Origin: a virus
UHGV virus genome: UHGV-0146066
Length of the DNA: 25,475 nt
Reading direction: 5' to 3' (one strand)
Positions within the stretch are counted from its first letter, which is position 1. Each line of letters begins with the position of its first letter. The notes below the pieces were generated by a model. The model searched no databases. It was not told the DNA's origin and saw only the letters and a program-made list of their open reading frames with translations. This document shows, piece by piece, positions 5,413 through 25,475 of the stretch. The position numbers were made by a program, and so were the translations under genes.

Positions 5413-5886
5413 TCATCCGGCAGTGAAGATTTGCTGTTTCAGCGGAGCACCATCCACCGCGAAGGTAAACTCTTTGGTTACAACTTCTTCATCGCCACCG
5501 TTCATAGCAACTTTAGAAATGAAGCCGTTGAAAGCGGTGCGAATACCAGTCTGTTTTGCTGCGTCAACGTAATATTCTACTTTAATCTGAATACGAGTAC
5601 CGTCTTCGGCAGCTTTGATCAGTTTTTCATGTACCGCATCGCCTGGGATGTAGTTAACGGTCAGAGTCAGATCAGGAACGTTCAGCTTCCCTACCAGTTT
5701 ACGGTTATACTGAGAAGAGAAGGATTTAACTTCTACAGTACCGCGCTCGATACCAGTTTCAGGAAAACCAGCACACTCTTTAATTTCTTCGTAGCTTTCG
5801 TGGTCGAGAGCGGTATTAGTGGTGTCCGCGTGATAGAACAGACTTACCAGACCACCAGTAAAAATATCTTTGAATTGCTGAGACAT
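5413..5886 (-). CDS. Tail tube protein, lambda gpV-like N-domain fold, 157 aa
   Basis: AAGGGG Shine-Dalgarno. Motifs TLTVNYIPGD, KAAEDGTRIQIKVEY and AFNGFISKV align with remembered gpV motifs [23 protein letters not shown] and VFRGWVSSIG. Ends in UGA-A. Confidence 0.6.
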   Translation of the reverse strand: MSQQFKDIFTGGLVSLFYHADTTNTALDHESYEEIKECAGFPETGIERGTVEVKSFSSQYNRKLVGKLNVPDLTLTVNYIPGDAVHEKLIKAAEDGTRIQIKVEYYVDAAKQTGIRTAFNGFISKVAMNGGDEEVVTKEFTFAVDGAPLKQQIFTAG

Positions 5887-13307: not shown

Positions 13308-14819
13308 TTAGGGATCGGTTTGAGAAGGGTTATCCTTGCTCTCACCATCAACGATAATATTTAGTGCGCTCTTTTCGGCTTGAATCTCTGAGAATACTTT
13401 TTCAGGATCATCACCACGTTCTAATATAACGGCAGTACGTGATTTAAGTCCGTTATCAATTAAAGCAATCTCGGCGCTTACGTCTTTAAATGGATCGACG
13501 GATTCAAAACGAGGACGAATAATAGTAGTGTTCTCGATAATATGCGGAATTGCAGTAATACGAATCGGAACAATACCACGCGCAGAATAATGGCGTAGAT
13601 ATGCTTCAAAAATTGGCAATACCACTGTTTCAATCAATTTGTTTTGCAGTGCTTTAACGCGCGTTCTTTGAAGTAATTCGCCGTAGCGTGCGGCGCTGTA
13701 ATTTATTTGGCTAGTATCGCCAGTTAAGCCCTGATTGAACACGCCAAGACCCATCGCTATACTCGTGAACATTCCATCATTGAAGCTGTTAAAGTCATCG
13801 CCGCTTTGCGTGGATTGAATACTCTTGATCGTTGCCCCTTCCGGTAATTCCTGAATAGTACCTGGCGCGAAATCGTGAATAACTTCCGGCGCTTGATATT
13901 GTTCATCATCTTCACCAGTATCAAAATCGTCACCAGAATCTTTCGGACGCTCGATGAACGCCATGCTACAACTTGAAATTCGTTTATGTACCAGTACAGC
14001 TTCGCGGAATGCGTCTTGATGTGCGATATCCTTAATCACTGGCAGGAAGTCAGTCACACCACGCAGAGATTCAGCCGCAAGTGGTTGATAATAATGACAT
14101 ACTTGCGAAGCATCTACGCGATAGTTATCACCTGTGTAAGTCTGAGTCAGTAGGTTGATTTTACGAAACCAAAATGCAACAGGGCGCATTGTTTCTACGT
14201 CATACTCGATCCCCTGATAGATAGCGCGTTCTTTGCTTACTTCACGGTTGAGCGTCCAGTCGCACTTATCAGCAGACAGGATAGAAACATTTAACTCATT
14301 GTTTTCTTTGGTTAAAACTATGAAGCACTCACCACCCATAACGCGCTCACGTTCAGCCATTACCAGCAATTCACGGAAGTTAAAGCGACCGTTACGAGAG
14401 AAGCGTTTAGCATTCTGCGCCCACTTCCAGAAAGCATTCTCGATCTGCTTATTCAGTGCGCTATCAAGTTTTCCATTTGATTTAACAACTGACGGCTTCG
14501 GATCTAGGCCAGTACCTACCACCATATCGGTGATGTATTGCGTGTAGCGACTGCCTACGGAGGTGTTTAAGGCCAGAGTACGACCCTGATCATAAAGGCG
14601 CTTACCATTCGATTTGAGAGCCTTATTGAAGGTTCCTGTGATAGTATCTTGTTGAAGCGATCCATCAATGCGATCACCAACCAGACCTAAACTTCGAGTA
14701 GCCAGAGATTTCTGGAATTTTTCTACTTGTTTGTCGATAAAGATTTTTTGTTGTTGCTGGCGGTGATTAGTTTTAACTGGAGTTTCTACCGCCTTTTTGC
14801 GTCGAAAAAGATTAAACAT
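13308..14819 (-). CDS. Portal protein, 503 aa
   Basis: Size and position between the terminase and protease/capsid genes. AGGGG Shine-Dalgarno. Acidic C-terminus. Confidence 0.7.
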   Translation of the reverse strand: MFNLFRRKKAVETPVKTNHRQQQQKIFIDKQVEKFQKSLATRSLGLVGDRIDGSLQQDTITGTFNKALKSNGKRLYDQGRTLALNTSVGSRYTQYITDMVVGTGLDPKPSVVKSNGKLDSALNKQIENAFWKWAQNAKRFSRNGRFNFRELLVMAERERVMGGECFIVLTKENNELNVSILSADKCDWTLNREVSKERAIYQGIEYDVETMRPVAFWFRKINLLTQTYTGDNYRVDASQVCHYYQPLAAESLRGVTDFLPVIKDIAHQDAFREAVLVHKRISSCSMAFIERPKDSGDDFDTGEDDEQYQAPEVIHDFAPGTIQELPEGATIKSIQSTQSGDDFNSFNDGMFTSIAMGLGVFNQGLTGDTSQINYSAARYGELLQRTRVKALQNKLIETVVLPIFEAYLRHYSARGIVPIRITAIPHIIENTTIIRPRFESVDPFKDVSAEIALIDNGLKSRTAVILERGDDPEKVFSEIQAEKSALNIIVDGESKDNPSQTDP

Positions 14820-14829
14820 GATTTACCCC

Positions 14830-15324
14830 TTATCGCGTAAGACGTAATTTGATATTTTTAATCGGACTAATTCCCTGTTTACGTCGTTCGGCTTGAATTA
14901 ATTTAGATAACTGACGTTCATAATCAGTCTTTAATTGCTGGAGAACAGCCAATGACTCATAGGCGAAAGTATTCCCTTTCACTGTCATTTGAGATAATGC
15001 GGCTTCGTCCCCAGATAAACGGGCGAAAATAACTTGCTCGATTAAGGCGATAGTTTCCCGCAGATATTCTTTTTTGGATTGTTTGGCGAATACTGGCAAA
15101 ACAGTTAATTCCTGCATTGATACCAGTTCTTCTTCCAAAGTTATTACGATGGTATATTTACCTTCGGCAAAATCTAAGGTTTTAATCTCATGATTAGCCG
15201 GAGAATCATCAACCTGATAGATAATATCTTTATTATTTCCTACCTGAATTGTTACACCCTCTTCATTCGCCAGCGTGACTTTTTCGCCTTTACGAATTAC
15301 TAAGGGAATTAGTTCTAAACTCAT
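14830..15324 (-). CDS. Hypothetical head protein, C-terminal half gpW-like (head-tail joining), 164 aa
   Basis: Lies between the large terminase and portal genes, the position of lambda W. C-terminal helical segment loosely resembles gpW. Confidence 0.35.
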   Translation of the reverse strand: MSLELIPLVIRKGEKVTLANEEGVTIQVGNNKDIIYQVDDSPANHEIKTLDFAEGKYTIVITLEEELVSMQELTVLPVFAKQSKKEYLRETIALIEQVIFARLSGDEAALSQMTVKGNTFAYESLAVLQQLKTDYERQLSKLIQAERRKQGISPIKNIKLRLTR

Positions 15325-15396
15325 AATTACCCCTTATTTAATTGTTATTGGATTAACAATATTTAGGAGTAAGCCGCCCCGAAGGACGGCGAGTTA

Positions 15397-17301
15397 TTAG
15401 AACGATGTTACCCAGCTACGGCCTCTATTTGGGCGTCTGGCGATGTTTTTACGTTGTGGTCGTGTGATTGGCTTATTTTCTTCGATTTGCTCGTCAGATT
15501 GCGATTTAGGAGCTTCTACGGGTTCTTCTGGTTCGCGGTTCAAACTATCTTTGATGGCTTCGAGTTTTTCCCATGACATTTTATTGAGTACATGGCGAGA
15601 AGCAGCATAGGAATAAGCCAGGCAGTCGAGAGCCTCGTTTCGTTGCTGACCAACTTTTACCCAACGTGTGGTATTACCCTGCCGTTTCAACTGTTCAGAT
15701 AACAATTGTTCGCAGTAGTCATCAGGAACGTCACCAATCTGGAAGACCGTATGAGGATCGCTGTCTCTCAAGTTCCGGTTAATCATTTCACGGATCATCG
15801 TCTTAAGGTTGTTTACGCCCAGAATTTTAAGAGTAAAACCACCCGTTCTTGTGTCCTTGACCGGAAGGATTGGAGCATCAACATTGCTTGCCCCTTTAAT
15901 GGCGCATAGGTTTTGCCACCTAGTGCAGAAGCGATAGATCACGTTTGTAGCTCGTCCGTTCGATGAGTCCACGAAAGCAGATAGCATCGGGATTCGTTGA
16001 CCTGATCGGGTATAGAATTTAGCTTTCAGGAAGTTGTAAAGCTGGTCATATGCTGGCGATTCGTGGCGTTCGCAGTTCACATCATAGAATGATCGGTGAT
16101 CAACTACGCATATCCCCTTACGAGAGATACCCAGCAAGGTAGATTCCAGACGGTCTTTTTGCTGGTCAACTCCACCTACCAGAGCCAGAACATCATCAGG
16201 AATATTATCTAAGCTAATGTCAGTTTTCAGCGTTTCCAGTTCGTCGGCTGTGCGGTCTTCGTTAAGATCATCGAAGGTTTCACCGAGCACCACATTATAG
16301 AACGTTGCCAGTGACATATTCGCGTAGCTATCAGCAAAGTCCACCACACACGCACGGATAGAACTAAACGGAGACATAAGGCGGTTAGCATGAAAACCGA
16401 TTACTTCCGCATTTGGTTCGGTGGCGACCCATTCTCCCTGAGCAACAGCACGGAGGCGATCTGGTTCTGACCAATCAGTTTCACATGACGGGCAACGGTA
16501 AACGGCTGTGTCTGGATTCGGCAGTGATTTACCATTGATTACATGCCAATCAAAGAATACTCTACTCCATTCCATTACGTGTTTGTGTCCGCAATGCTGG
16601 CAAACGACGTGGTATTTTCTTTTATCCGAGAGTTCCCATTGTTGGTTTATCGCCCCATCCCGCGAAGTTGGAGTAGAAGCAATTACGATCCTTGCATCAT
16701 CACCGAAAGTGGTTGCGCGTTGTTCCGCTAGCTGGATCGGGTTCCCTTCGTCTGACTCATCAGCCGCATCAACTTCATCCAGAATAATCAAAGGCAGTGT
16801 CTTACCGCGCAAGTGTGATGGACTGTTCAGCGACATGAAATACATGAATGATCCGTTACGAAGCTGAATAATCGATGAGTTGTTAACGGCATTGCGATCT
16901 GATTTGTCGGTGATCATCGCCTTTAATTCTGGGGTTGCCTCTAATACTGGCTTCACCTTACCCGCAATCCATGAGTTCAATTCTCGAACGTTCGCTTGCA
17001 AAACACCGATATTAGTAGGGTTACTGGCGATCCTGTGAAAGATAATACCGTTTAGCACAAGAGTTTTACCCAACTGTGCCGAGCACTTTAGCACAATTTT
17101 TCGCCTATCTTCGGTGATCGCGTCCATCATTCCACGTTGGAAGGGATGCAACTTAATTAGAGATCCGGCTTTAACACCATCGGTTGCAACTACATTAGCC
17201 TCTACCCATTCGCTAGGTTTCATCGTTTTAGGTGGGCGAATTGCCGCAGAGATATTTTTAAGAATCTTTTTTAATTTGGCCTTATTAGAAATCAGTTTCA
17301 T
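15397..17301 (-). CDS. Terminase large subunit, lambda gpA family, 634 aa
   Basis: N-terminus IRPPKTMKPSEWVEANVV resembles gpA RPEPQTAVEWADANYY. Also IKGASNVDAPILPV versus gpA IKGASVYGKPV, and RNEALDCLAYSYAA versus RNEALDCFVYALAA. GAGGGT Shine-Dalgarno. Confidence 0.85.
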   Translation of the reverse strand: MKLISNKAKLKKILKNISAAIRPPKTMKPSEWVEANVVATDGVKAGSLIKLHPFQRGMMDAITEDRRKIVLKCSAQLGKTLVLNGIIFHRIASNPTNIGVLQANVRELNSWIAGKVKPVLEATPELKAMITDKSDRNAVNNSSIIQLRNGSFMYFMSLNSPSHLRGKTLPLIILDEVDAADESDEGNPIQLAEQRATTFGDDARIVIASTPTSRDGAINQQWELSDKRKYHVVCQHCGHKHVMEWSRVFFDWHVINGKSLPNPDTAVYRCPSCETDWSEPDRLRAVAQGEWVATEPNAEVIGFHANRLMSPFSSIRACVVDFADSYANMSLATFYNVVLGETFDDLNEDRTADELETLKTDISLDNIPDDVLALVGGVDQQKDRLESTLLGISRKGICVVDHRSFYDVNCERHESPAYDQLYNFLKAKFYTRSGQRIPMLSAFVDSSNGRATNVIYRFCTRWQNLCAIKGASNVDAPILPVKDTRTGGFTLKILGVNNLKTMIREMINRNLRDSDPHTVFQIGDVPDDYCEQLLSEQLKRQGNTTRWVKVGQQRNEALDCLAYSYAASRHVLNKMSWEKLEAIKDSLNREPEEPVEAPKSQSDEQIEENKPITRPQRKNIARRPNRGRSWVTSF

Positions 17302-17388
17302 GTAATTACCCTCATTACGAAATATGAAGGTATTTATTAAATTGTTGATATTTTGATAAATACGGGTATTAAGATTTAAGGGGGGTGT

Positions 17389-17994
17389 ATGCTAATTAAT
17401 CAGCAAGAAAGAGATGAATTAGAATTAGCCTTGTCTTGTTGTACCGATCATGAATATCGTTTGCCAGTTAAGCACCATCACAAGAAGACTGATTACACTA
17501 CATCCGGTTTTAGTCGCGAAGAAGCGAAGCAAATTTTAATCGAGTTGTATCGCGATCATGGGTATACAGATATCCATAACTTCTTTAAGAAGCACCGAAC
17601 ATCACAGACAGAGTTTCAGCGAGTCCGTGAATGGTTTGATTTTGATATCAAGCGTTATTATCGAGTGGATGACGGTCCAATCTATCGGTTGCAGTGGAAG
17701 CCGATCAGGGAAGTGCTTAAACAGAAGAGATTGAATCATGCCATTACACGCTATCGTAACGTGGCTTTCAAGAAAGGCTATGGTGATACAAGGGAATTGT
17801 TTGTAGAACTCGCTAACGTGCGATATAGCCATTATTACAGGAATCCTAAAGAGTTCTTCGAAGTGCTGCGCAAGGTTGATATAAGTCGGGGTACATACTA
17901 TTCACGGTTGAAGAAGTACGGGATTAAGGCAGAGTTTTTTATGTCAGTTGACGATGGAGAACTTTTTCCGATAAAATGTAAGTCCTCTAAATAA
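17389..17994 (+). CDS. Hypothetical DNA-binding protein with C-terminal HTH (ISRGTYYSRLKKYGI), 201 aa
   Basis: AGGGGGG Shine-Dalgarno. Divergent from the large terminase gene. The C-terminal motif resembles recombinase/Fis-type helix-turn-helix. Confidence 0.5.
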   Translation: MLINQQERDELELALSCCTDHEYRLPVKHHHKKTDYTTSGFSREEAKQILIELYRDHGYTDIHNFFKKHRTSQTEFQRVREWFDFDIKRYYRVDDGPIYRLQWKPIREVLKQKRLNHAITRYRNVAFKKGYGDTRELFVELANVRYSHYYRNPKEFFEVLRKVDISRGTYYSRLKKYGIKAEFFMSVDDGELFPIKCKSSK

Positions 17995-18028
17995 AGGTGA
18001 ACATTCACTTTAATTTGGAGAAATGACT

Positions 18029-18253
18029 ATGACTACTAAAGCTACTCGCGGTCGTCCTGCCCGTTTTAATCGTGAACAACTGGCAGAGATTGTAAAAGCG
18101 TACTATCAAGCACCGAAAGGTAAAGAGAACAAAGAACGGGTATTAAATGAGCATGGCTTATCTATAGCCCAGCTATACAAATCCCTACATAAAGTTGATT
18201 TGAAATTCTTTGTTCAGGTTGACGGTGAAATGGTAGAAGCAACAGGAAATTGA
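18029..18253 (+). CDS. Small HTH-like protein (TRGRPARFNREQLAEIVKAYY), 74 aa
   Basis: GGAG Shine-Dalgarno is 8 nt upstream of the second ATG at 18029; the track start at 18023 has too short a spacer. Paralog of the ORF at 21192-21371. Confidence 0.55.
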   Translation: MTTKATRGRPARFNREQLAEIVKAYYQAPKGKENKERVLNEHGLSIAQLYKSLHKVDLKFFVQVDGEMVEATGN

Positions 18254-18261
18254 TTCTCTAG

Positions 18262-18288
18262 GCCAATCCTTCGGGGTTGGCTTTTTTT
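18262..18288 (+). terminator. Intrinsic terminator of the 17389-18253 operon
   Basis: 8-bp stem (18262-18269 pairs with 18274-18281) with UUCG tetraloop, followed by T7 (18282-18288). Confidence 0.8.
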
Positions 18289-18301
18289 ATACCTACAGAT
18301 A

Positions 18302-18327
18302 CAAAAAAGCCCCTGAAATTCAGGGGC
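18302..18327 (-). terminator. Intrinsic terminator downstream of the Rha gene
   Basis: GCCCCTGA-AAT-TCAGGGGC perfect hairpin at 18309-18327, with a U-tract on the minus strand (plus A6 at 18303-18308). Confidence 0.7.
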
Positions 18328-18335
18328 AAAAATTA

Positions 18336-19133
18336 TTACAGTCCGAAGTGTTCTAGCGATCCAACATTCTGACGAATCATGATAGTCGCTTTATTCTGAA
18401 TCATGATCGTGTTATTCGGTTTAGGCAGTGTCAAAGCTGCTTTTTGTTCTTCTTCAAGAACACCCAATTCAACCAGCACCGGAAGCACATCAACAGTGAA
18501 AGAAAGTTGATAGTGAGCGTTCATGCTGCAAAACGGTATCGCGGAATCATTAGCAACATACCCACACGGCTTGTTATTTTCATCATAGACGCGCTCAATG
18601 TATCCGGCAGTACGTAAGGCCGTCAGTGCTTCTTTAACCTTCGTAGCGCCCTTTTTAGCACCTAACAGACGCGTCATTGAATGGCTATCTACGGATTTGC
18701 GATGATGTAGAGTAATCAGTTGCTTGTTCTCGCGAGTTTTCTTTAACGCCAGTTCGATCCAGTCGGTTTCTTCAAAGTCTGCATACGGGTTAACGGCTAA
18801 ACGTTCCTGACGCAGTTTTTCATTTTCTTCTTTCAGTCGTTTCCATTCCTGAATAACAATCATTCGACGTTTAACATCGTAACCAGTAACAAGAGTCAGC
18901 GTCATTTCTTCGTCAAGGTGATATTCGGTTTGTTCGCGTCCATATTGGTCAAAATAGATACGCTGAGATTTCAGCGCATCTAATTCAAGTGCTTTAAACA
19001 TCTTAACAATATCAGCTTTAACGTTTTTGTGTTCTTTTCCGGTAAATTCAGCGATCTGACGAGAAGACATGGTCAGTGGTTTGGTGTTATCAACAACCAG
19101 AGACACGGAAGCAGTTTTAACAGCAGTATTCAT
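18336..19133 (-). CDS. Phage regulatory protein, Rha family (N-terminal Rha domain), 265 aa
   Basis: N-terminal LTMSSRQIAEFTGKEHKNVKADIVKM matches the remembered Rha-domain signature. AGGGGG Shine-Dalgarno. Confidence 0.7.
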   Translation of the reverse strand: MNTAVKTASVSLVVDNTKPLTMSSRQIAEFTGKEHKNVKADIVKMFKALELDALKSQRIYFDQYGREQTEYHLDEEMTLTLVTGYDVKRRMIVIQEWKRLKEENEKLRQERLAVNPYADFEETDWIELALKKTRENKQLITLHHRKSVDSHSMTRLLGAKKGATKVKEALTALRTAGYIERVYDENNKPCGYVANDSAIPFCSMNAHYQLSFTVDVLPVLVELGVLEEEQKAALTLPKPNNTIMIQNKATIMIRQNVGSLEHFGL

Positions 19134-19174
19134 AGTAAAAATCCCCCTTAACGGTTTAGTGATTTAATCCTCCC

Positions 19175-19198
19175 TGTTCCGGCATCACCACCGGAACA
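19175..19198. promoter_or_regulatory. Perfect 8-bp inverted repeat TGTTCCGG-N8-CCGGAACA between the 50-aa ORF and Rha (operator or RNA hairpin)
   Basis: Read directly from the sequence. No adjacent U-tract, so probably not a terminator. Confidence 0.35.
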
Positions 19199-19217
19199 AT
19201 TTTATTTATAAGAAGTT

Positions 19218-19370
19218 TTATCTCGTTTTGTATTCAGCCAGGCAGCGATCAATTTCTTCTTGAATCTGGCGCTGGCGTTCGTGGTAATCAACCATCGAGA
19301 AATTCAGGTTTGGTGTCCACGGCTTGCGGTTCGGGTTTTTACGTCCATCAATTTTCTTAGTAGTATTCAT
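19218..19370 (-). CDS. Small ORF not in the ORF track, 50 aa (MNTTKKIDGRKNPNRKPWTPNLNFSMVDYHERQRQIQEEIDRCLAEYKTR)
   Basis: Strong AAGAGGA Shine-Dalgarno 7 nt upstream of ATG at 19370, with a sigma70-like promoter upstream. Hand-translated. Confidence 0.5.
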   Translation of the reverse strand: MNTTKKIDGRKNPNRKPWTPNLNFSMVDYHERQRQIQEEIDRCLAEYKTR

Positions 19371-19428
19371 AGTTCACATCCTCTTTACAAATCTAGGTCA
19401 AATCAGTTCAAAGTTGTCAAGTGCGATA

Positions 19429-19457
19429 ATCATAAAAAAGTCTGAAAATTTTGCCAA
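19429..19457 (-). promoter_or_regulatory. Sigma70-like promoter for the 50-aa ORF / Rha unit (-35 TTGGCA, 17-bp spacer, -10 TATGAT)
   Basis: Hexamers read on the minus strand (plus 19452-19457 and 19429-19434). Additional TTGACA-like hexamers occur on both strands nearby. Confidence 0.5.
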
Positions 19458-19492
19458 CACCCCTTGACAAGATGCCAAAGGGTTGACCTAAC

Positions 19493-19960
19493 TTACAGCA
19501 TATCTAAGCCTTCATCGTAACCGTAGAAGCCACCGTGAGAAGAAAAAGCGATTGGTGCGTAGTCATCATCATCTTCGTCTTCTTCATCGCGTTCTGGTGC
19601 TTTCTGAGCGGTTTCTTTGCCGTAGTTAAACATTGCTTCATCCAGTTCTTGAAGAGTAAAGAAGCTACCCAGATCAACATCACCGGAACGGACTTCGAAA
19701 GGAAGGTATTCGCTAACGATGATCGCTGGAATATTCTGGTACTTTAAGCGGCCTTCATCGGTGAAGACGTTAACAACAATGGTCGGCTTCTTATTACGGC
19801 AAAACGCATACCATGCACTAGAGAAATGAGATTCATCAGAGTTGAAAAGAATGTTGTAACCACGTTCAACAAAGATCTTCATTAACTTGTCATTGTGGAA
19901 GCTATCAGCATCAAAACCTAACAGGATGAAAGGAGTAGTGGTAGTCATTTTATGGTTCAT
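19493..19960 (-). CDS. Hypothetical early protein with acidic C-terminus (EEDEDDDDY), 155 aa
   Basis: AGAGGA Shine-Dalgarno 8 nt upstream of ATG at 19960. No recognisable domain. Confidence 0.5.
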   Translation of the reverse strand: MNHKMTTTTPFILLGFDADSFHNDKLMKIFVERGYNILFNSDESHFSSAWYAFCRNKKPTIVVNVFTDEGRLKYQNIPAIIVSEYLPFEVRSGDVDLGSFFTLQELDEAMFNYGKETAQKAPERDEEDEDDDDYAPIAFSSHGGFYGYDEGLDML

Positions 19961-20503
19961 AGTGGAAATCCTCTAAAAGAAAGTGAATCAATCTAATATT
20001 ATTTATAAAGAGAAAATTCTTGTTATTATGAAAAGAGTGATCTGGTAGAGTCCAAAACTGGTCTGTACTTGAAAGATGATTGGATTCAGTCGGGCTAAAG
20101 CCCCCCTTCATAGATTTGATTAAATCATCATCAAAACGAAGAAGTATCTTTAGAATATAAGAATCTTTCTTTTGAAGAAATAATAATCAGGAAGCAATTT
20201 AGCAACCGAAGGTTGCAATCCCGAAGGGATACCAATACCTTTCTAGAAATTGATTGTTACTCACTTCGTTCGTTTACTAGAATCAGTTAGTAACTAGTAT
20301 TAAATCCCTTTCGAATCCTGCTTGCAGGTCTTAGAAGGTGTTGGTGGGCGCTACGCGCACGGCTACGCCGTATTCTTTTTGCGAGATCTTTCTTGAACGT
20401 AGTGAGAGAAAGCGAGCAAAAAGGAGAACGTTAGTTCGAATTTTATATTCTATGGTCTGTGGGGTATAATACCTTTCAAGGTCATACACTTACGTGATTG
20501 AAG

Positions 20504-20622
20504 TGTAGGGTTAGTGTAGGTGTGTAGGTTTCATAGTGTAGGTTTGAGGGTGTTATAGTGTAGGTTTACTGGCTAGTGTAGTGTAGGCCAATCCCTTTAA
20601 AGGGTAGGTGTGTAGTGTAGGT
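20504..20622 (+). repeat. Array of at least 7 direct GTGTAGG(TTT) repeats (iteron-like)
   Basis: GTGTAGG at 20504, 20515, 20523, 20537, 20559, 20582 and 20616, plus GTGTAGT variants, with irregular spacing. No ORF on either strand. Confidence 0.75.
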
Positions 20623-20818
20623 TTTCAATCAAAAATTTTGACAAAAAATTCTTGTATATTATTCAACCAAAAAACCACCAAAAATAGATGTAAATTCATG
20701 ATTTAAAAGAAATTTTCAAAAGATCTCCGTGCCATATAAGGTTTAAAAGGTTGATAATCATTATTTGCCATTTTCAAACAAAAATTTTGATACACCTTTC
20801 TCGCTTAGATCATGAATG

Positions 20819-20847
20819 TTGACATGTGTCAAGAACTATTTTATACT
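20819..20847 (+). promoter_or_regulatory. Strong sigma70 consensus-like promoter (TTGACA, 17-bp spacer, TATACT)
   Basis: -35 at 20819-20824 and -10 at 20842-20847, in an AT-rich context. Predicted start near 20854. Confidence 0.65.
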
Positions 20848-20853
20848 TTTTAT

Positions 20854-21013
20854 CCTTGGTAGGGGTTGAAATTTTCCAAACAATCCCCATATAGATGATA
20901 AGCATGATTTTTCGTGTATAAATACAATGCATGAAAAATGATTGTTCACTTCTGAAAATCCCTTGACTAACTGTTAATTCATACAGCACTGGTTAGATAT
21001 GCAGTGCTTTTTC
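20854..21013 (+). ncRNA. Candidate ~160-nt small RNA or leader transcript between the strong promoter and the first terminator
   Basis: Bounded by the promoter at 20819-20847 and the terminator at 20986-21013. Only an 8-codon ORF without a Shine-Dalgarno lies inside. Confidence 0.3.
20986..21013 (+). terminator. Intrinsic terminator (7-bp stem AGCACUG/CAGUGCU, then U5)
   Basis: Stem 20986-20992 pairs with 21003-21009; T-run 21009-21013. Confidence 0.6.
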
Positions 21014-21136
21014 GGTCGAATATTGTACGAATTGATTAATTATCAATCTTCTCTTTAGCAATTCGTGCTCCCACTGATCGGATATACAGTTGTTTTACAG
21101 AGTTTTTGAAAATCATTTTTATAAATAGAATTGTTC

Positions 21137-21156
21137 AGAGCGAAAAGCTCTTTTTT
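21137..21156 (+). terminator. Short hairpin with GAAAA pentaloop and U6 (terminator/attenuator; boxB-like architecture)
   Basis: AGAGC-GAAAA-GCUCU followed by TTTTTT, 35 nt upstream of the ATG at 21192. No promoter lies between it and the operon. Confidence 0.5.
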
Positions 21157-21191
21157 AAGGAATTATTAATCCACATGTGAGGAATCGATTT

Positions 21192-21371
21192 ATGGCTAGA
21201 CCTGTTAAATTTACTCGTGAAATGATTGTTGATATTGCTAAACGGTTTTACAGCGACACTGAGCGAGGCGGGGAAAACTTCTTTAAGAAGGAAGGGATTG
21301 ATAGAAGCGGATTCTATAAGCTAATGAAGAAATACGAAATTCAGGTAAAGATTAACGTTCAAGTTTGTTAA
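21192..21371 (+). CDS. Small HTH-like protein (ARPVKFTREMIVDIAKRFY), 59 aa; paralog of 18029-18253
   Basis: GAGGAA Shine-Dalgarno upstream of ATG at 21192; the track GTG start at 21177 is less likely. Shares the RP-x-(K/R)F-x-RE...I/V...Y motif with the 18029 ORF. Confidence 0.55.
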   Translation: MARPVKFTREMIVDIAKRFYSDTERGGENFFKKEGIDRSGFYKLMKKYEIQVKINVQVC

Positions 21372-21487
21372 TCCACTTTCACTGAGAATTATATGATGGC
21401 TTTAAAAATAAAAAGCCTCCCTTGTTGCAGCAAAGGAGACTTGAAATGAACAATTAAAACTAACACAGCATTCAGGAGTATTTATAA

Positions 21488-22501
21488 ATGAAAAATTCTA
21501 AGCGCATCACCTTCAACCTATTCATCAAATCCAACGGCAAACTGAACATTACCGTTATGGAAGGTAAAGCAAGCAAACAAGACAAATCCTTTGAAGTAGT
21601 ATCCGGTAAGACTCTGACCGAAATGCGTCAGAATGCTGGCATCAAAGACGGTGCTGAATGGCAGATCACTAACCGTTTCGACAAACGTCACGTTAAACCT
21701 ACACTGGTAGAAGGTGAATCCGTTTATTGCTTCGCTCGTGCTGTTAAAGCCGATGAAACTTACTATCTCGCTGTTATTAAAACTGCTTCCGGCTTCCGTG
21801 CTGTAATGCATCACAAGAGCAAGCGTAACGAATACGGCGTAGAGACCCAGGAAGTTGCAAAACGCTTCCGTACTGTTGCTACTGAATCCACTGTAAAGGA
21901 TGTTTCTGGTACTGTTAACACCGCTAAAGGCGGTTCCTTCTACAACCACGCATTACAGGTTACTTCCTCCTTCTTCTGCAAAAAAGAAGCACAGAAAGAA
22001 GTTGCTCCGGTAGTAGTTGAAGAAGTTAAAGAAGAAGTTGCAGTGGTTGAATCTTCCGAAGTTGAAGCACTGAAAGCACGCATTGCTGAACTGGAAGCTG
22101 AAAACGCATCTCTGAAAGCTGAACTGGCAGCGCAGGAAACCACTTTCGAAGTAGCAGCGGTTGAAGTTGAAGCAGTTGAAGAAAAATCCATTGATGAAGA
22201 ACTGGAAGAACTCCTTAACTATCGCTGGGGTAACGGTGAAAAAGTAGGACAGGAAGAACAGAAAGAAGCTGATCCGGTAGTAGTTCCGGTTGAAGAAAAA
22301 TCCGCACCTGTTACTAACTTTGAATCCCTGCGCAATAACTTTATGGCTAAATTCAAAACCACTTGGGAAGATACCGAAGAAGAACAAGAAGAGATTGAAG
22401 TAAACGAAGACGAGATCCGCGAAGCACAGATGGCACTGCATGACGCTATCTATGACACCAACTACAGCGCCTACGCCTACGCCTACGCCTACGCAGCTTA
22501 A
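21488..22501 (+). CDS. Abundant-looking acidic coiled-coil protein ending in SAYAYAYAYAA, 337 aa
   Basis: AGGAG Shine-Dalgarno 8 nt upstream. Codon choice looks biased toward common E. coli codons. Acidic, coiled-coil C-terminal half. No domain recognised. Confidence 0.65.
   Translation: MKNSKRITFNLFIKSNGKLNITVMEGKASKQDKSFEVVSGKTLTEMRQNAGIKDGAEWQITNRFDKRHVKPTLVEGESVYCFARAVKADETYYLAVIKTASGFRAVMHHKSKRNEYGVETQEVAKRFRTVATESTVKDVSGTVNTAKGGSFYNHALQVTSSFFCKKEAQKEVAPVVVEEVKEEVAVVESSEVEALKARIAELEAENASLKAELAAQETTFEVAAVEVEAVEEKSIDEELEELLNYRWGNGEKVGQEEQKEADPVVVPVEEKSAPVTNFESLRNNFMAKFKTTWEDTEEEQEEIEVNEDEIREAQMALHDAIYDTNYSAYAYAYAYAA
22469..22492 (+). repeat. Hexanucleotide microsatellite (GCCTAC)x4 encoding the C-terminal (AY)4
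   Basis: Four perfect tandem GCCTAC units immediately before GCAGCTTAA at the end of the 337-aa ORF. Confidence 0.9.
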
Positions 22502-22516
22502 TAGAGAGGTAATTCT

Positions 22517-22759
22517 ATGATTAATCAAAACAAAGAATTTCTTGGTAATCTGATGTTAGAAATTACCAAAATGAAAGAAAGAATGGTAGCGATGGAATCA
22601 GAGATTAAAACTCTTAAAGCTGATAATAAGGCGTTGAGAAAGTCCTTAAAACTGATTGATGAGACTAATGCGGTTATGATGGATCAGGTGTTTCCTGAGT
22701 GGCGAAATGAAACTAAACCTACACAACATAAGAAACCTACACTTCGAATTGTTGCATAA
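22517..22759 (+). CDS. Small coiled-coil protein, 80 aa
   Basis: AGAGAGG Shine-Dalgarno. Heptad-like pattern (KERMVAMESEIKTLKADNKALRKSLKLI). Last gene of the plus-strand operon. Confidence 0.5.
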   Translation: MINQNKEFLGNLMLEITKMKERMVAMESEIKTLKADNKALRKSLKLIDETNAVMMDQVFPEWRNETKPTQHKKPTLRIVA

Positions 22760-22763
22760 AAAA

Positions 22764-22781
22764 GGGACTCCGAAGAGTCCC
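22764..22781 (+). terminator. Hairpin GGGACUC-CGAA-GAGUCCC after the plus-strand operon (weak U-tract)
   Basis: Perfect 7-bp stem directly after the stop codon of the 22517-22759 ORF. The following sequence TAGTAAGTTT is only moderately U-rich. Confidence 0.45.
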
Positions 22782-22852
22782 TAGTAAGTTTAGGTTAGGT
22801 TTGCACAACAAAGATGAGGTTATAATGAACATAATGCTACATTATTCTTTAA

Positions 22853-22882
22853 AGCCAGAAAAATAACCGCCCCGAAGGGCGG
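22853..22882 (-). terminator. Intrinsic terminator of the minus-strand small-terminase / small-peptide unit
   Basis: CCGCCC-CGAA-GGGCGG hairpin at 22867-22882, followed on the minus strand by UUAUUUUUCU. Confidence 0.6.
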
Positions 22883-23040
22883 GAGGATTAATACTCAATC
22901 TATACTTGTTATGTTTTTGTGTTGTATAGATCACTGACTATGAAAACACTGTACTGGAGTGTGTTTTATGGCTTTTAATCGGGAATCCTCAAAGAAGATC
23001 CCCTGTTAATAACCATAAGGAGAAAAGGCAGATTACACTA

Positions 23041-23214
23041 TTATTTAGTATCCTTTTTACAGCAACTAAAAAGAATAAACAGGATTAAGCATACCCAGCC
23101 GTAAGGCGTACCGATTAGAAATTTGAAAAACACCACCAGCGATATAAAAATCAATTTAATGCCAGCGACGATAGTCAAAAACAGCAGAGTAGCAAAGTAG
23201 ACAAAAAGATCCAT
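23041..23214 (-). CDS. Small hydrophobic membrane protein not in the ORF track, 57 aa (holin-like or toxin-like)
   Basis: Strong AGAGGA Shine-Dalgarno 8 nt upstream of ATG. Hand translation MDLFVYFATLLFLTIVAGIKLIFISLVVFFKFLIGTPYGWVCLILFILFSCCKKDTK has two hydrophobic segments and a charged C-terminus. Confidence 0.5.
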   Translation of the reverse strand: MDLFVYFATLLFLTIVAGIKLIFISLVVFFKFLIGTPYGWVCLILFILFSCCKKDTK

Positions 23215-23267
23215 AGATAATCCTCTTTGAAAACGACCATCATCTATAGTTCAATTCATCGATTTAA

Positions 23268-23369
23268 TTAATGATACTTGAAAGCGTTACACACAGTAGA
23301 AATGCCAATGTGAGCAAGTGAATATACGATAGTTAATCCTACAGCCAGATAAATCAAAAATTCAACCAT
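23268..23369 (-). CDS. Small hydrophobic peptide not in the ORF track, 33 aa
   Basis: GAGGA Shine-Dalgarno 7 nt upstream of ATG. Hand translation MVEFLIYLAVGLTIVYSLAHIGISTVCNAFKYH has one hydrophobic segment. Confidence 0.4.
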   Translation of the reverse strand: MVEFLIYLAVGLTIVYSLAHIGISTVCNAFKYH

Positions 23370-23399
23370 AGGTAAATCCTCAAATAAGAAAAAGGTTAG

Positions 23400-23418
23400 C
23401 GGGGGATGTTCTCCCCCG
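23400..23418 (-). other. Stem-loop CGGGGGA-N5-TCCCCCG downstream of the small terminase gene
   Basis: Perfect 7-bp inverted repeat. A U-rich tract begins 6 nt after it on the minus strand. Confidence 0.4.
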
Positions 23419-23469
23419 TAGACGTTGACCAGCTCAACATCCTTCACGTATATGTTTAGTATCTAATTT

Positions 23470-24024
23470 TTAAGACACATCAAATTCATCGTCTTCTTCT
23501 GGTTCTTGTTCCGGTTCATCCATTAATGCTAATTCTTCTTCCTCGTCTTCTCCCAAATCTGCATTTTCGAACAAGTCCCCTACTTCATTTAAACGACGTT
23601 CGATGATCTCCCTTAGCTTATTCTTCAATGTTTTCTGATCAGTGGCGGATTCTAAAATTTCTAGGGCATCGATCGTACAAATCTGCAAAATAGTCTGTTT
23701 CACTTTCCCGCAGTATTCCGCTAGTTCCTGTTCTACATAACCGACAGGAATCAGGAGATTCATTTTTTCCTGGTTCTCTCGTTCGGCTGCATCTGCCAAA
23801 GCACGTTCACGGCGTAATTTCTCTACGTCGATTTGTTCTTTGATAGAAGTTTGTTTAAGCGGGTTGATAATATTTTTCAAGACCCATTCTGTTCCTTCTT
23901 TGGCTGGCACGCGGCGGGTATTGGTGTTAAATGGCAATCCCCTTTCTAACCATCGCTTACCGCCACCATTCAATGTATAGCCATATAAACGGGAAATTTC
24001 TGTAAGGGTTAATTCTTCTTTCAT
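23470..24024 (-). CDS. Terminase small subunit, lambda Nu1-like, 184 aa
   Basis: N-terminal LTLTEISRLYGYTLNGGGKRWLERGLPF and EKLRRE resemble remembered Nu1 segments LADIFGASIRTIQNWQEQGMPV, GGGK and EKLRRE. Acidic C-terminus. Strong GGAGGA Shine-Dalgarno. Confidence 0.5.
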   Translation of the reverse strand: MKEELTLTEISRLYGYTLNGGGKRWLERGLPFNTNTRRVPAKEGTEWVLKNIINPLKQTSIKEQIDVEKLRRERALADAAERENQEKMNLLIPVGYVEQELAEYCGKVKQTILQICTIDALEILESATDQKTLKNKLREIIERRLNEVGDLFENADLGEDEEEELALMDEPEQEPEEDDEFDVS

Positions 24025-24148
24025 TGGTTATCCTCCATTAAATTTGCGTAATTTTATTTATTGGTTTTACGCACAATCTAAGCGCCTAAATCGCATTCTA
24101 ACGAAGGGAAAGATCCAGTAATGGTAAGGGTTAGGAAGTGGGTTAATA

Positions 24149-24167
24149 GTCGCGTAGCGACCGCGCC
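24149..24167. other. GC-rich partially palindromic element GTCGCGTAGCGACCGCGCC upstream of the small terminase gene (possible cos/pac-related site)
   Basis: GTCGC-GTA-GCGAC inverted repeat plus CGCGCC, in an otherwise AT-rich intergenic region about 125 bp upstream of the gene. Only loosely resembles lambda cosN. Confidence 0.2.
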
Positions 24168-24382
24168 ATAAGTGAAGTGATCACGTTTTAGAATCTCACA
24201 CGCACATCAAATACCGGGGTGCCGAAAACTCCCTTTATTTCATCCATGGAACAGTACCTTTTTAATTTGTCAAGTATTAATTTCTTAATTTAATTACTAA
24301 ATCTCACCCCAATAATTGAAAAAATATCAAAAATCAATAAAGTAAGCATCTAAAAGTCAGTCCATACCAAAAGAGGTATAAA

Positions 24383-25150
24383 ATGAAAAACATTATCGCT
24401 GCTATCATGCTTTCTGCTACTGCTTTCGGTGCTGATGCTGCGTCCTTTGATTGCACTAAGGCTACTACCAAATCAGAGAAGTTTATTTGTGCTAATGAGT
24501 CAATCTCCGCACTGGATTCTAAACTTCATGAAGTATATGTTAAGGCTGTTAAGATTAATCCGTCTCTTAAACAAGAGCAACGTAACTGGAATAAAACTGT
24601 TCGTGACACAATGATCAATATCGGGCAGATTCAGCCACTGGAGGCTGTATACAACGCTCAAATCCAAAACTTGATGAATGTATTATCTAAAGAAGAAACC
24701 GCGTCAGGGAGCGTTTCAGAGACTTCTGCGAAGGTTGAAGAAGAACAACCGAAACAGGAAGAAAAAGTGGTGGAAGAACCGAAGGTTGAAGATAAACCAA
24801 AAGGATTTACCGGAGACATGACATTGCAATGCGATGTTCACTATAGCTGGGAAATCCAAGACGGGGTAGAAACAAAAGCAGTTAAAGACATTGGCTATCC
24901 TCGTTATAACTCTGGTGAACTTAAACTTAAAGTAAAAGACGGGGAAATTATTGAATTTGTGTATCGTGATAATTATGACGCGCATAAAGCAAAGACAAAA
25001 ACAGTGACGCATCAGAATGGCGCAATGCAATATGAAGGCCAAGTGGATAACAAAAAATATTATGTGTGGCGTGATAATCAAGATATGATTCGCTTAGAAG
25101 TACATAAAAAATATTCAAGAACATACATTGACCAGTACGGGTGCAAATAA
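24383..25150 (+). CDS. Secreted protein with N-terminal DUF1311 / LprI-like domain, 255 aa
   Basis: Sec-type signal peptide MKNIIAAIMLSATAFGADA. FDCTKATTKSEKFICANESISALDSKLHEVYVKAV fits the remembered DUF1311 pattern. AAGAGG Shine-Dalgarno. Confidence 0.55.
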   Translation: MKNIIAAIMLSATAFGADAASFDCTKATTKSEKFICANESISALDSKLHEVYVKAVKINPSLKQEQRNWNKTVRDTMINIGQIQPLEAVYNAQIQNLMNVLSKEETASGSVSETSAKVEEEQPKQEEKVVEEPKVEDKPKGFTGDMTLQCDVHYSWEIQDGVETKAVKDIGYPRYNSGELKLKVKDGEIIEFVYRDNYDAHKAKTKTVTHQNGAMQYEGQVDNKKYYVWRDNQDMIRLEVHKKYSRTYIDQYGCK

Positions 25151-25475
25151 TTATGAAATTCAATAACATGAAGATCACAAAAGATTGGTGGGATGCGATG
25201 AAAGCTAACCACCAGAACGATATTAATTAAGTAACATTTTAGATATACAGCACCCAGCTAACAGATCACCTTTTATGGATTTCATTATAACCCTTTTGAT
25301 CTGGAAACTATGTTAATTAGTTGATTTCTAAGCCTTGTCCTTGTGATGGGGCTTTTTATTGCAAAATTTTTAGTTATTTGGGGTTGACTACATTCGGGTG
25401 CCAATTCGCCTGGCTAACTCTTGCTGAGTGATTTCTGACTGTAAAAAAGCATTTAACAGCAATACCTTAGAGGCG

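Follow-up and report, generated by a model that had tools for sequence, protein, structure and literature searches.

Why are the two genes of a lambda-type terminase, both on one strand, separated by 6,168 bp, when in lambda nu1 (191-736) and A (711-2636) overlap by 26 nt and belong to a single late operon that immediately follows cos? The separation, put at ~6 kb, and the contrast with lambda were pointed out by an earlier note on the window, the whole 25,475-nucleotide stretch of UHGV virus genome UHGV-0146066. All the features it listed were found where it placed them, and the layout is indeed unusual relative to lambda.

TerL matched GpA_ATPase (E 1.4e-59) and GpA_nuclease (E 4.8e-46) in Pfam and phrog_15 in PHROG (E 1.8e-141), and aligned over its full length with lambda gpA (BLASTP 5e-27, 23% identity). 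The assignment of the 23470-24024 reading frame as a Nu1-family small subunit also held. TerS matched phrog_57 'terminase small subunit' over residues 24-172 (E 6.1e-11), and its family profile aligned with lambda Nu1 over 101 columns in hhalign (probability 95.1%, E 3.3e-8). The window protein itself remained below every Pfam threshold; PF07471 Phage_Nu1 was matched by 7 of 13 family members, with a best E of 8.6e-5. TerS has a winged HTH at its N-terminus, followed by long helices and a tail that is acidic and disordered. Its most conserved part across all types was the C-terminal half before the tail, reaching 81% mean pairwise identity in one 20-column window, and this conservation pattern fits a possible shared TerL interface. 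The packaging enzyme is a lambda-type pair of Nu1-like TerS and gpA-like TerL, and its genes do not form a cassette. The features from the portal gene to the end of the block and beyond were as follows.

13308-14819, lambda-type portal gene downstream of terL (PF05136 matched in relatives)
14830-15324, head-tail joining gene downstream of terL
15397-17301, minus strand, terL, gpA-type large terminase, 634 aa
17302-17388, AT-rich divergent intergenic region between terL and the p201 operon, 87 bp
17389-17994, plus strand, p201, conserved 201 aa protein
18023-18253, plus strand, hth75, small HTH protein
18336-19133, minus strand, Rha-family regulator or antirepressor-like protein, variable slot
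19218-19370, minus strand, 50 aa ORF between p155 and Rha, annotated in RefSeq relatives, variable slot
19493-19960, minus strand, p155, with an acidic C-terminus, first in the leftward unit, conserved core
19961-21191, non-coding control region between two divergent operons, GC 0.34
21192-21371, plus strand, hth60, small HTH protein
21488-22501, plus strand, p330, orphan protein of ~330 aa with a hypervariable N-terminal domain, a coiled coil and an acidic region
22517-22759, plus strand, p80, 80 aa coiled-coil ORF after p330, variable slot
23041-23214 and 23268-23447, minus strand, two small hydrophobic ORFs downstream of terS in its unit, variable slot
23470-24024, minus strand, terS, Nu1-type small terminase, 184 aa
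24025-24382, minus strand, terS upstream region, conserved in alignments of relatives
24383-25150, plus strand, LprI-family lysozyme-inhibitor-like gene (moron), between terS and the attachment site

Transcription units between the terminase genes

The view that terS and terL belong to different transcription units was supported. Between them lie opposite-strand operons at 17389-18253 (plus) and 21192-22759 (plus) and a unit on the terminase strand at 19960-18336 (minus). A scan for terminator-like hairpins found 14, against 5.4 +/- 2.0 in shuffled sequences, and each transcription unit was flanked by them. In the gap they were located downstream of hth75 (18260-18283, plus), downstream of Rha (18327-18309, minus), and, as a convergent group downstream of p80, at 22782-22763 and 22882-22867 (minus). 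The promoter scan showed no enrichment (16 found, 18.6 expected from shuffles). The separation into units was drawn from the hairpins together with the conserved elements upstream of terS.

On either side of the 1.2 kb non-coding region are the divergent operons hth60-p330-p80 and p155-x-Rha; p201 and hth75 make up a third, small operon, divergent from terL. The terS gene forms a short unit of its own that also encodes two small membrane peptides; conserved sequence precedes this unit, and a separate terminator belongs to it. The terL gene heads the head/tail operon, which starts at the 87 bp intergenic region; this region, whose layout was kept in all related loci, is presumed to carry both putative promoters, for terL and for the p201 operon. 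Almost every non-structural gene of the phage is found in this gap.

Rha was confirmed by PF09669 (44.3 bits, cut-off 29.9) and by phrog_63 Ant (E 1.9e-18), and hth75 and hth60 proved to be paralogs as proposed (BLASTP 1e-7, 32% identity). The p201 protein had no match in Pfam, PHROG, NCBIfam or PADLOC; it showed weak similarity to hth75 (E 0.46), and the small-HTH motif may be present in it twice, in degenerate form. No family match was obtained for p155 in the same four collections, nor for the two small hydrophobic ORFs. LprI matched PF07007 with 25.0 bits (cut-off 22).

Conservation of the split among related prophages

The window is the right-hand ~25 kb, or two-thirds, of a ~35 kb temperate siphovirus-type prophage in hicB, inserted by a large serine recombinase encoded at the far end. 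In strain H2 the order is attL-hicB', three small ORFs, the serine recombinase (559 aa; Resolvase + Recombinase + Zn_ribbon_recom), lysis, tail, head, terL, the block, terS, LprI and 'hicB-attR. The hicB' fragment starts at about 25394 in the window. Except for the recombinase, no recognisable regulatory or replication genes were found elsewhere in the prophage. The closest match to the window, in strain C325, was a prophage copy truncated by IS3. IS elements and an mcr-1/ISApl1 unit were inserted in or beside the prophage in some strains. No close relative was found among sequenced phages: across 50,697 phage records, TerL had no match above 43.7%, and the record that gave this value looks mis-joined.

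The split was present in all 31 related loci examined, from Escherichia, Salmonella and Proteus, with gaps of 4,851-8,478 bp. The skeleton was also retained, running from terS through p330 and hth60 on the other strand, a non-coding region of 1.2-1.8 kb and p155, to hth75 (30 of 31 loci) and p201 (31 of 31) on the other strand and then terL. The p155 homolog occupied the same place in every locus, with 18-91% identity, and p201 DNA could be aligned in all 26 E. coli loci compared. Block-related sequence occurred in 64 of 5,426 complete E. coli genomes, and whole-block spans in E. coli records covered about 6.6-8 kb. The split is an inherited layout of the whole lineage, a little-studied group of E. 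coli, Salmonella and Proteus prophages. The earlier note had named the conserved gene order of a known phage genus as an outcome that would speak against its own reading; synteny revealed such an order in substance, but in a lineage that is not a named phage genus.

Within this frame, the slots that varied among relatives were Rha, the small genes after terS, the gene after p330, and LprI. A Rha-domain gene was called neither in the Proteus locus (L004) nor in L010. The slot after terS held genes of other sizes or was empty, and the slot of the 50 aa ORF held 57-110 aa genes in other loci. Among the 26 E. coli loci, the 3' half of LprI was alignable in 4-7% and its 5' part in 29-35%.

p330 and the direct-repeat array

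The 1.2 kb region was non-coding, as the earlier note had described it, and had no match in Rfam. It begins at 19961 and ends at 21176 with the listed GTG start of hth60 (21177), or at 21191 with the ATG used by relatives, which gives MARPVKF. Its position was kept in the relatives, where the only gene called within it was T5orf172-like and belonged to the Proteus locus. The following elements were located inside it.

20202-20230, minus strand, two adjacent short GC-rich hairpins, with UUCG loops on this strand
20503-20621, plus strand, direct-repeat array with seven exact copies of GTGTAGG (10-12 copies at one mismatch)
20819-20847, plus strand, putative sigma-70-like promoter directed toward hth60 and p330, the best match in the block (TTGACA-17-TATACT, 11/12)

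The UUCG-loop hairpins were kept in relatives by compensatory stem changes. Other short GC-rich hairpins were embedded in the AT-rich background, such as GCGCTACGCGC and ACGGCTACGCCGT at 20348-20371. The -35 element of the putative promoter sits within the palindrome TTGACATGTGTCAA; the promoter was conserved in the alignment of relatives, and terminator-like hairpins follow it at 20984-21008 and 21137-21151. GTGTAGG occurred 11 times in the whole window against 1.5 expected, and none of 100 shuffles contained as many copies. In several loci the repeats were spaced by 11 or 21-22 bp in a single orientation.

The motif of the array tracked the type of p330 over the 31 loci, with at least six clear types. 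The motifs were CCTACAC in 13 loci, TTGCCCCTGA in 11, ATCCCTAG in 2 and GATTCCA in 2, while TTTCTAGTA and GATGTACAAG were each confined to a single locus; a seventh motif, TTTCCCCGCG, was weakly defined in 2 loci. Each locus carried 4-13 copies of its own motif and 0-3 of foreign ones. The p330 proteins of same-motif pairs were 44-94% identical, those of different-motif pairs about 20%. The Proteus and Salmonella loci with the motif ATCCCTAG had p330 proteins that were 57% identical. Although hth60 lies between the array and p330, its type reassorted independently of both, and type A loci carried either of two hth60 types. Linkage alone is thus insufficient to account for the pairing of motif and p330. 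From these sequence patterns, we infer that p330 would bind the array through its hypervariable N-terminal domain and would act as the specificity determinant of the phage.

The p330 protein gave only coiled-coil noise in Pfam and showed no homology to initiator, repressor or ParB families. Its homologs were limited to 11 cluster representatives among 1.84 billion, and its structure model was unusable (pLDDT 42). Most likely, p330 is an iteron-type replication initiator acting at an origin, with a repressor, immunity or incompatibility role equally compatible. The replication role was reached largely by elimination, because no helicase, helicase loader or primase gene was recognisable in the prophage. 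Iteron-type modules with matched initiators include lambda O/ori, P4 alpha/ori-crr and SaPI Rep/ori. Like these, the array consists of same-orientation direct repeats, often in helical phase, and its sequence changes with the DNA-binding domain of a nearby protein. A 100 bp stretch of 81% AT adjoins the array in the window, a further likeness, but not in most relatives. In contrast to the known modules, p330 has no similarity to known initiators and no helicase or primase domain, and the array lies ~0.9 kb upstream of the p330 gene, between divergent operons, and neither within that gene nor behind it. Two prophages of this kind are present in strain UTME-9. Their TerL, p201, hth75 and Rha are identical, but they differ in p155, hth60, p330 and TerS. 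From length alone (313 and 331 aa), their p330 pair looks like types B and A, and the double prophage gives a hint of immunity or incompatibility.

Explanations for the split layout

The best explanation as a whole is probably an inherited split layout with a control region between the terminase genes, in which the packaging genes are apart because the regulatory and probable replication region lies between them. As its second option, the earlier note had suggested a cargo hotspot; on that view, terS and terL were once adjacent and the gap was filled with genes for accessory functions, defence or anti-defence, varying between phages. The Proteus locus and L010 lack Rha, the genes after terS and after p330 differ between loci and LprI is rare, so a small part of the cargo idea survives for four variable slots. 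Mobile elements (IS elements, mcr-1/ISApl1) also occur in or beside some copies of the prophage. However, the core of p330, hth60, the array region, p155, hth75 and p201 was found in 30-31 of 31 loci from three genera, and no ORF of the block matched a PADLOC defence family. Moreover, with no recognisable regulatory or replication genes in the rest of the prophage, recombinase aside, the block cannot be dispensable. Synteny largely refutes the hotspot, which we regard as highly improbable. It is distinctly unlikely, too, that the 184 aa product, rather than being the working small terminase, serves as a recombination directionality factor or as a winged-HTH regulator of Nu1/MerR type, TerL having another, unrecognised partner or none. 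Such a role would suit the missing Pfam match of the window protein, the weak matches of two relatives to HTH_17, an excisionase-type HTH (E 0.0056), and the MerR-like character of the best Foldseek hits in the PDB (BmrR and BldC), none of them significant, to an AF2 model with a pLDDT of 71.6. The gene and the attachment site are also ~1.4 kb apart, in the circular form the gene would be close to that of the serine recombinase, and TerS and TerL types reassort freely among relatives. Yet the homology exceeds the HTH, since phrog_57 covers residues 24-172 and the Nu1 alignment includes the helix after the winged HTH. Phage_Nu1 is the commonest Pfam match in the family, the conserved C-terminal half would fit a common TerL interface, and the 35 kb element contains no further candidate for TerS. 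In general, gpA-type large terminases work with Nu1-type partners.

The split might also be an artefact of the map, if cos lay inside the 1.2 kb non-coding region and placed terS and terL at opposite ends of the virion chromosome. That region is large, conserved in position and rich in short GC-rich hairpins, and a distant relative embedded in PQ671644 has a similar hairpin-rich stretch of 1.3 kb opening the record, upstream of terL, with a terS homolog at the other end of the 26 kb segment. PQ671644 looks chimeric, however, so its ends carry no weight. The array follows the type of p330 and not that of TerS, and so is not a TerS-binding cosB. Even with cos there, ~3 kb of opposite-strand genes would separate it from each terminase gene, and the packaging genes would still form no cassette. 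We consider this placement of cos unlikely.

The inherited split shares with lambda Nu1-A a winged-HTH small subunit, a gpA-type large subunit of the same domain order, and a head-tail joining gene and lambda-type portal following the large subunit. It differs in the 6.2 kb distance, the separate units with three other transcription units between them, and the divergence of the sequences, as seen in the 23% identity of TerL to gpA. In P2/186, the small (M) and large (P) terminase genes are likewise non-adjacent, in divergently transcribed late operons; in P2 both remain in the late morphogenetic cluster, a few kb from each other and separated by nothing but head genes. Here, what intervenes is the whole early/control region, and the terminase families differ. 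T7-like phages, with lysis genes between gp18 and gp19, and mycobacteriophage clusters, where several genes separate terS from terL, also indicate that adjacency is usual but not obligatory. Those insertions are short, on the same strand and within one transcription unit, and none is known in which the subunit genes are separated by divergent regulatory operons together with a non-coding control region.

In the inherited split layout, TerS and TerL would each have a transcript of its own, with no coupling of their translation, and would come together in trans. The example of lambda would place cos directly upstream of terS, and the virion chromosome would read cos-terS-control region-terL-head-tail-lysis-recombinase-attP-LprI-cos. 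A cos site was not located; the 24025-24382 region is a candidate cos region as well as a candidate terS promoter/operator. It contains a -35-like CTTGACAAA at 24266-24274 (reverse complement), an inverted repeat TGCGTAA-N15-TTACGCA at 24045-24073 and a GC-rich dyad GTCGCGTAGCGAC at 24149-24161. The dyad tracked the HTH type of the adjacent TerS and not the TerL type, a match that simple linkage could explain.

Terminase genes in separate transcription units

The gene at 15397-17301 on the minus strand encodes a gpA-type large terminase (TerL) with both the ATPase and the nuclease domain, and matched PF05876 at 202.2 bits (cut-off 25.6) and PF20454 at 157.7 bits (cut-off 22.5). The 184 aa product of 23470-24024, on the same strand, matched phrog_57 ("terminase small subunit") over residues 24-172 (E 6.1e-11); the window protein gave no Pfam match at E <= 0.1 and no NCBIfam terminase match. 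Seven of 13 representative members of its family matched PF07471 (Phage_Nu1), with a best E of 8.6e-5. Alignment of the family profile with lambda Nu1 by hhalign scored 95.1% (E 3.3e-8), pairing query 5-105 with Nu1 3-123 in 101 columns that span the winged helix-turn-helix (HTH) and the next helix. The N-terminal winged HTH is thus homologous to that of Nu1. Taken together, these matches support the earlier note's assignment of this gene as a Nu1-type small terminase (TerS).

The AF2 model of TerS (pLDDT 71.6) contained the HTH, long helices and a disordered acidic tail, with a strand-helix-helix-strand-helix order in residues 4-58. The packing between helices is probably poor in this model (pTM 0.32), and a Foldseek search of it against the PDB returned nothing significant (best E 1.5). 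Sequence matches to PDB entries were weak (6hn7_B, 1j9i and 7lw0, E 0.19-0.8). Among all TerS types, the best-conserved part was the stretch directly before the acidic tail, which would fit a common TerL-binding surface. The family was confined to Escherichia, Salmonella and Proteus (73 clusters), and most copies are labeled "hypothetical protein" in RefSeq. No second TerS candidate was found elsewhere in the 35 kb element.

Genes of this region include:

15397-17301, minus strand: terL, large terminase
17389-17994, plus strand: p201
18023-18253, plus strand: hth75
18336-19133, minus strand: Rha-domain gene
19493-19960, minus strand: p155, acidic protein
19961-21191: non-coding control region
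21192-21371, plus strand: hth60
21488-22501, plus strand: p330
22517-22759, plus strand: p80
23470-24024, minus strand: terS, small terminase
24383-25150, plus strand: LprI-family gene

The two terminase genes lie on the same strand at a distance of 6,168 bp. The interval between them, here called the block, holds two opposite-strand operons and one same-strand unit, with terminator-like hairpins at each unit boundary. The terS gene has its own terminator at 22,867-22,882, and terL heads an operon of its own that begins at an 87 bp divergent region. The proposal that terS and terL belong to different transcription units therefore stands, and the subunits would probably be made separately and assemble in trans. 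The contrast drawn with lambda, where nu1 overlaps A, also holds: in neither the window nor any of 31 related loci was terS directly upstream of terL and coupled to it. Both proteins are members of the lambda Nu1/gpA families, yet their genes lack the cassette arrangement that defines them. In addition, TerS types and TerL alleles reassort independently of each other.

Split terminase genes are known from P2, whose M and P genes belong to divergent late operons, and T7-like phages and some mycobacteriophages have short insertions between the terminase genes. We know of no described case in which the subunit genes flank an entire early control region, and our literature search found none. The arrangement implies that a full control region can separate the units from which the two terminase subunits are expressed, and the free reassortment of TerS and TerL offers a natural test of how closely the subunits must match in the holoenzyme. 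Where pipelines for annotation or phage typing assume a terS-terL cassette, this small terminase will go undetected, so that packaging type or prophage completeness may be misjudged.

Alignment of the relatives showed that the region upstream of terS is conserved and has elements of its own. These include a -35-like CTTGACAAA in all aligned loci but the two most divergent, an inverted repeat TGCGTAA-N15-TTACGCA adjoining the terS ribosome-binding site, and a GC-rich dyad, GTCGCGTAGCGAC. The dyad tracks the HTH type of TerS rather than the allele of TerL, a pattern that linkage alone would give likewise; among the loci compared, no terS-upstream element followed the TerL type. The cos site was not located, and would be placed upstream of terS purely by analogy with lambda. 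The IMG/VR contigs carrying the element all start at the hicB start codon, and are thus trimmed prophage calls rather than virion ends.

Conserved and variable parts of the block

The 31 related loci included Salmonella and Proteus genomes with TerS 52-70% identical to that of the window, one divergent E. coli copy and 25 IMG/VR prophage contigs. In all 31, terS was followed by genes for a ~330 aa protein and a ~60 aa HTH protein on the opposite strand, then by a non-coding region of 1.2-1.8 kb and a gene for a ~155 aa acidic protein. Next came a ~75 aa HTH gene (30 of 31 loci) and a ~200 aa gene on the opposite strand, and then terL. The distance between terS and terL ranged from 4,851 to 8,478 bp. 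Whole-block matches in E. coli genomes covered ~6.6-8 kb even when only one-third of the sequence aligned. Because all 31 loci share this layout, the split dates back to the ancestor of the lineage, and the greater part of the block is core.

Comparison of the window bin by bin with 26 E. coli loci revealed a mosaic pattern. The p201/hth75 genes and the terminator region at 22,800-23,000 aligned in all or nearly all of these loci, terS in 92-95%, p155 in ~77-80%, and the repeat array of the control region together with p330 in 46%. The terL gene occurred as two alleles, with the window's in 46%, and the LprI gene was rare. Variable slots were limited to the Rha gene, the small genes after terS, the gene after p330 and the LprI gene. 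The Rha-domain assignment rests on PF09669 (44.3 bits against a cut-off of 29.9), with TIGR02681 at 30.9 below its cut-off of 45.95; the gene was absent from the Proteus locus and from one other related locus (L010). No block ORF matched a defense family in PADLOC. These observations do not agree with the suggestion that the block is a hotspot for accessory cargo, since its core is kept in 30-31 of 31 loci and only four slots vary. Nor is the split a peculiarity of one genome, given its presence in every Escherichia, Salmonella and Proteus locus of the synteny comparison. It is a real and conserved architectural oddity of an undescribed prophage lineage.

The remainder of the prophage contains only a recombinase, three small ORFs without known function, and the lysis and structural genes. 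Regulatory functions, and replication functions if the phage encodes any, must therefore reside in the block.

The 5' part of the LprI gene (24377-24790, ~414 bp) showed 94-96% DNA identity to a gene annotated as "hypothetical protein" in 59 records of T4-like phages, most of them RB49/JSE/Phi1-like members of Krischvirus. On sequence identity, this implies a recent exchange of the segment between a temperate siphovirus prophage and virulent myoviruses.

The p330 protein and the repeat array

Within the 1.2 kb non-coding region, what stands out most is the set of GTGTAGG direct repeats that form an array at 20503-20621. The motif occurs 11 times in the whole window against 1.5 expected, a count reached by no shuffle. 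In the relatives, an array lies at the same relative position, with its repeats in one orientation and often spaced at 11 or 21-22 bp. The motif itself differs among the 31 loci, and tracks the type of the ~330 aa protein.

Array motifs of the related loci, read on the terS-sense strand
CCTACAC: 13 loci
TTGCCCCTGA: 11 loci
ATCCCTAG: 2 loci
GATTCCA: 2 loci
TTTCTAGTA: 1 locus
GATGTACAAG: 1 locus
TTTCCCCGCG (poorly defined): 2 loci

The motif proper to a locus was present there in 4-13 copies (1-2 in the case of the poorly defined seventh), against 0-3 copies of any foreign motif, so that the direct repeats co-vary near-exclusively with at least six clear p330 types. Proteins with different motifs were only ~20% identical, whereas the Salmonella and Proteus proteins that share ATCCCTAG were 57% identical. 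The hth60 gene, which lies between the array and p330, did not follow this pattern, and loci of type A, the p330/array type of the window, carried either of two hth60 types. Since hth60 reassorts, as do the TerS and TerL types, physical linkage alone cannot explain the pairing of p330 with its array. From this co-variation we infer that the N-terminal domain of p330 (about residues 1-170) recognizes the array. TerS was also considered as the array binder and was rejected, because its type does not follow the array motif. A type-independent motif seen in relatives, AAAGGNATTGG, was not enriched in the window (4 matches against 2.1 expected).

The p330 protein is an orphan. A first homolog search returned only near-identical E. 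coli sequences; 14 diverse members were recovered when non-E. coli types served as queries. An exhaustive profile search yielded only 11 cluster representatives among 1.84 billion and no bridge to any known family, and no Pfam, PHROG, NCBIfam or PADLOC match exceeded coiled-coil noise. AF2 run on a 17-sequence alignment gave no usable structure model (pLDDT 42.2). The C-terminus ends in a (YA)n run, SAYAYAYAYAA, and near-identical homologs of 322-343 aa vary in length by this run and by repeats in an acidic region; the copy in strain C325 has 351 aa. Three further copies of the array motif, in inverted orientation, occur at 22718-22742 (a pair separated by 18 bp, at the 3' end of this operon) and at 21698-21704 (inside p330). 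They were found in type A loci only, and may be secondary binding sites.

The p330 protein and its array may form an iteron-type origin with its cognate initiator. The helical phasing and uniform orientation of the repeats would suit such a role, and no other replication gene was found anywhere in the element. The origin reading also draws on the 81% AT stretch that abuts the array in the window. A 100 bp stretch of 75-81% AT adjoins the array in the window and in one related locus (L007), while in the remaining five loci inspected the stretch richest in AT is 200-700 bp distant. However, p330 showed no homology to the known Rep, O or alpha initiator families. The same pair may instead serve as an immunity or incompatibility determinant, which would be consistent with the many specificities found inside one host species and with the placement of the array between two divergent operons. 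The two copies in E. coli strain UTME-9, one in hicB and one in ycdX, point the same way, as they differ in p155, hth60, p330 and TerS; their TerL, p201, hth75 and Rha are identical. Judged by protein length alone, the two p330 proteins of UTME-9 resemble types B and A.

The two roles are not mutually exclusive. A broader proposal, which we put forward as a rather unlikely one, combines them: in an undescribed temperate siphovirus lineage without recognizable CI/Cro, O/P or helicase genes, the p330 family, with at least six interchangeable DNA specificities and a helically phased array for each, would be both the replication initiator and the immunity or incompatibility determinant. The terS gene would then be wired into the early control region instead of the late operon, making packaging and replication/immunity specificity one exchangeable module apart from terL. 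We consider this module of orphan protein and repeat array, rather than the terminase split, the most useful lead, as the p330/array pairs would provide ready-made orthogonal protein-DNA specificities from an orphan family.

Other elements of the control region are:

20202-20230, minus strand: two adjacent short UUCG-loop hairpins, ~245 nt upstream of p155
20819-20847, towards hth60 and p330: conserved promoter-like site, 11/12 matches, -35 in a palindrome
20984-21008 and 21137-21151: two conserved terminator-like hairpins, in the leader expected from the 20819-20847 site

The stems of the UUCG hairpins are kept in relatives by compensatory changes (for example GCAACC/GGTTGC, GCCCC/GGGGC, GGATGC/GCATCC and GGACAC/GTGTCC), which points to a structured element in RNA or single-stranded DNA. 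Rfam gave no match at E <= 1 anywhere in the window, including the non-coding 19961-21191. The 9-mer TTATAAATA or its reverse complement was noted at 19203-19211, 20000-20008, 21119-21127 and 21479-21487, upstream of the genes for Rha, p155, hth60 and p330 at a distance of 0-70 bp. At Rha and hth60, the copy lies inside a common 21 nt element, the two occurrences of which are 90% complementary. These sites may represent a common class of promoter or operator.

The prophage and its lineage

By megablast, the window matched E. coli chromosomes. The match in strain C325 reached 99.9%, with its prophage copy cut by IS3, and strain H2 (NZ_CP028733) carried an intact copy of ~35 kb. The H2 copy begins with a 120 bp hicB 3' fragment, three small ORFs and a 559 aa large serine recombinase (Resolvase, Recombinase and Zn_ribbon_recom domains), followed by the endolysin and lysis-region ORFs, the tail, head and portal genes, terL and the block. 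It ends with the 184 aa terS ORF, the LprI-family gene and a 312 bp hicB 5' fragment adjoining intact hicA. From this order, the window corresponds to ~25 kb at the right-hand end of a hicB-integrated prophage. Its structural module resembles that of siphoviruses, with a tape measure, a tail tube, a fused protease-major capsid gene, a lambda-type portal and a head-tail joining gene.

None of 50,697 phage records was a close relative; the best TerL match was 43.7% identical and all others <= ~31%. The best match for TerL, and the only one for TerS, was PQ671644 (Escherichia phage DCP80), a 141 kb record classified as T4-like Gaprivervirus. In PQ671644.1, the first ~26 kb (positions 1-26300 of locus L003) hold a siphovirus-type terL-portal-capsid-tail-lysis-terS set, 32-43% identical to this prophage and without any of the block proteins, and T4-like genes (motA, rIIA) come after. 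The record looks like a chimeric assembly, in which a T4-like genome is fused with 26 kb from a distant relative, and was set aside as evidence for genome ends. We found no description of the prophage family or of its gene order in the literature, and these prophages are an undescribed lineage. Block-related sequence was present in 64 of 5,426 complete E. coli genomes, a frequency of ~1%.

The element splits the hicB antitoxin gene (window ~25394-25475; 12566-12685 and 47850-48161 in the related locus L002). A 5' fragment of 309-312 bp is left beside hicA, the toxin gene, which is intact, and the 3' fragment, of 120 bp, is at the opposite prophage end. A second integration site in the lineage is the PHP-domain phosphatase gene ycdX, adjoining ghrA, which is used by loci L005, L006, L008 (Salmonella) and L009 and by one UTME-9 copy (L038, 3.41 Mb). 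Some strains have also received mcr-1: in E. coli PE15 (NZ_CP041628) and HeN100 (NZ_CP044443), mcr-1.1 flanked by ISApl1 lies inside the stretch that matches window 15000-25475. Within the siphovirus module, the gene at 5943-9443 on the minus strand encodes a 1,166 aa product matching the T4 gp37-type long tail fiber distal subunit (phrog_1699, E 1.6e-136). It is flanked by tail-tube-like genes at 9525-10358 and 5413-5886, and a Gp38-type receptor-recognizing protein is annotated in some relatives.
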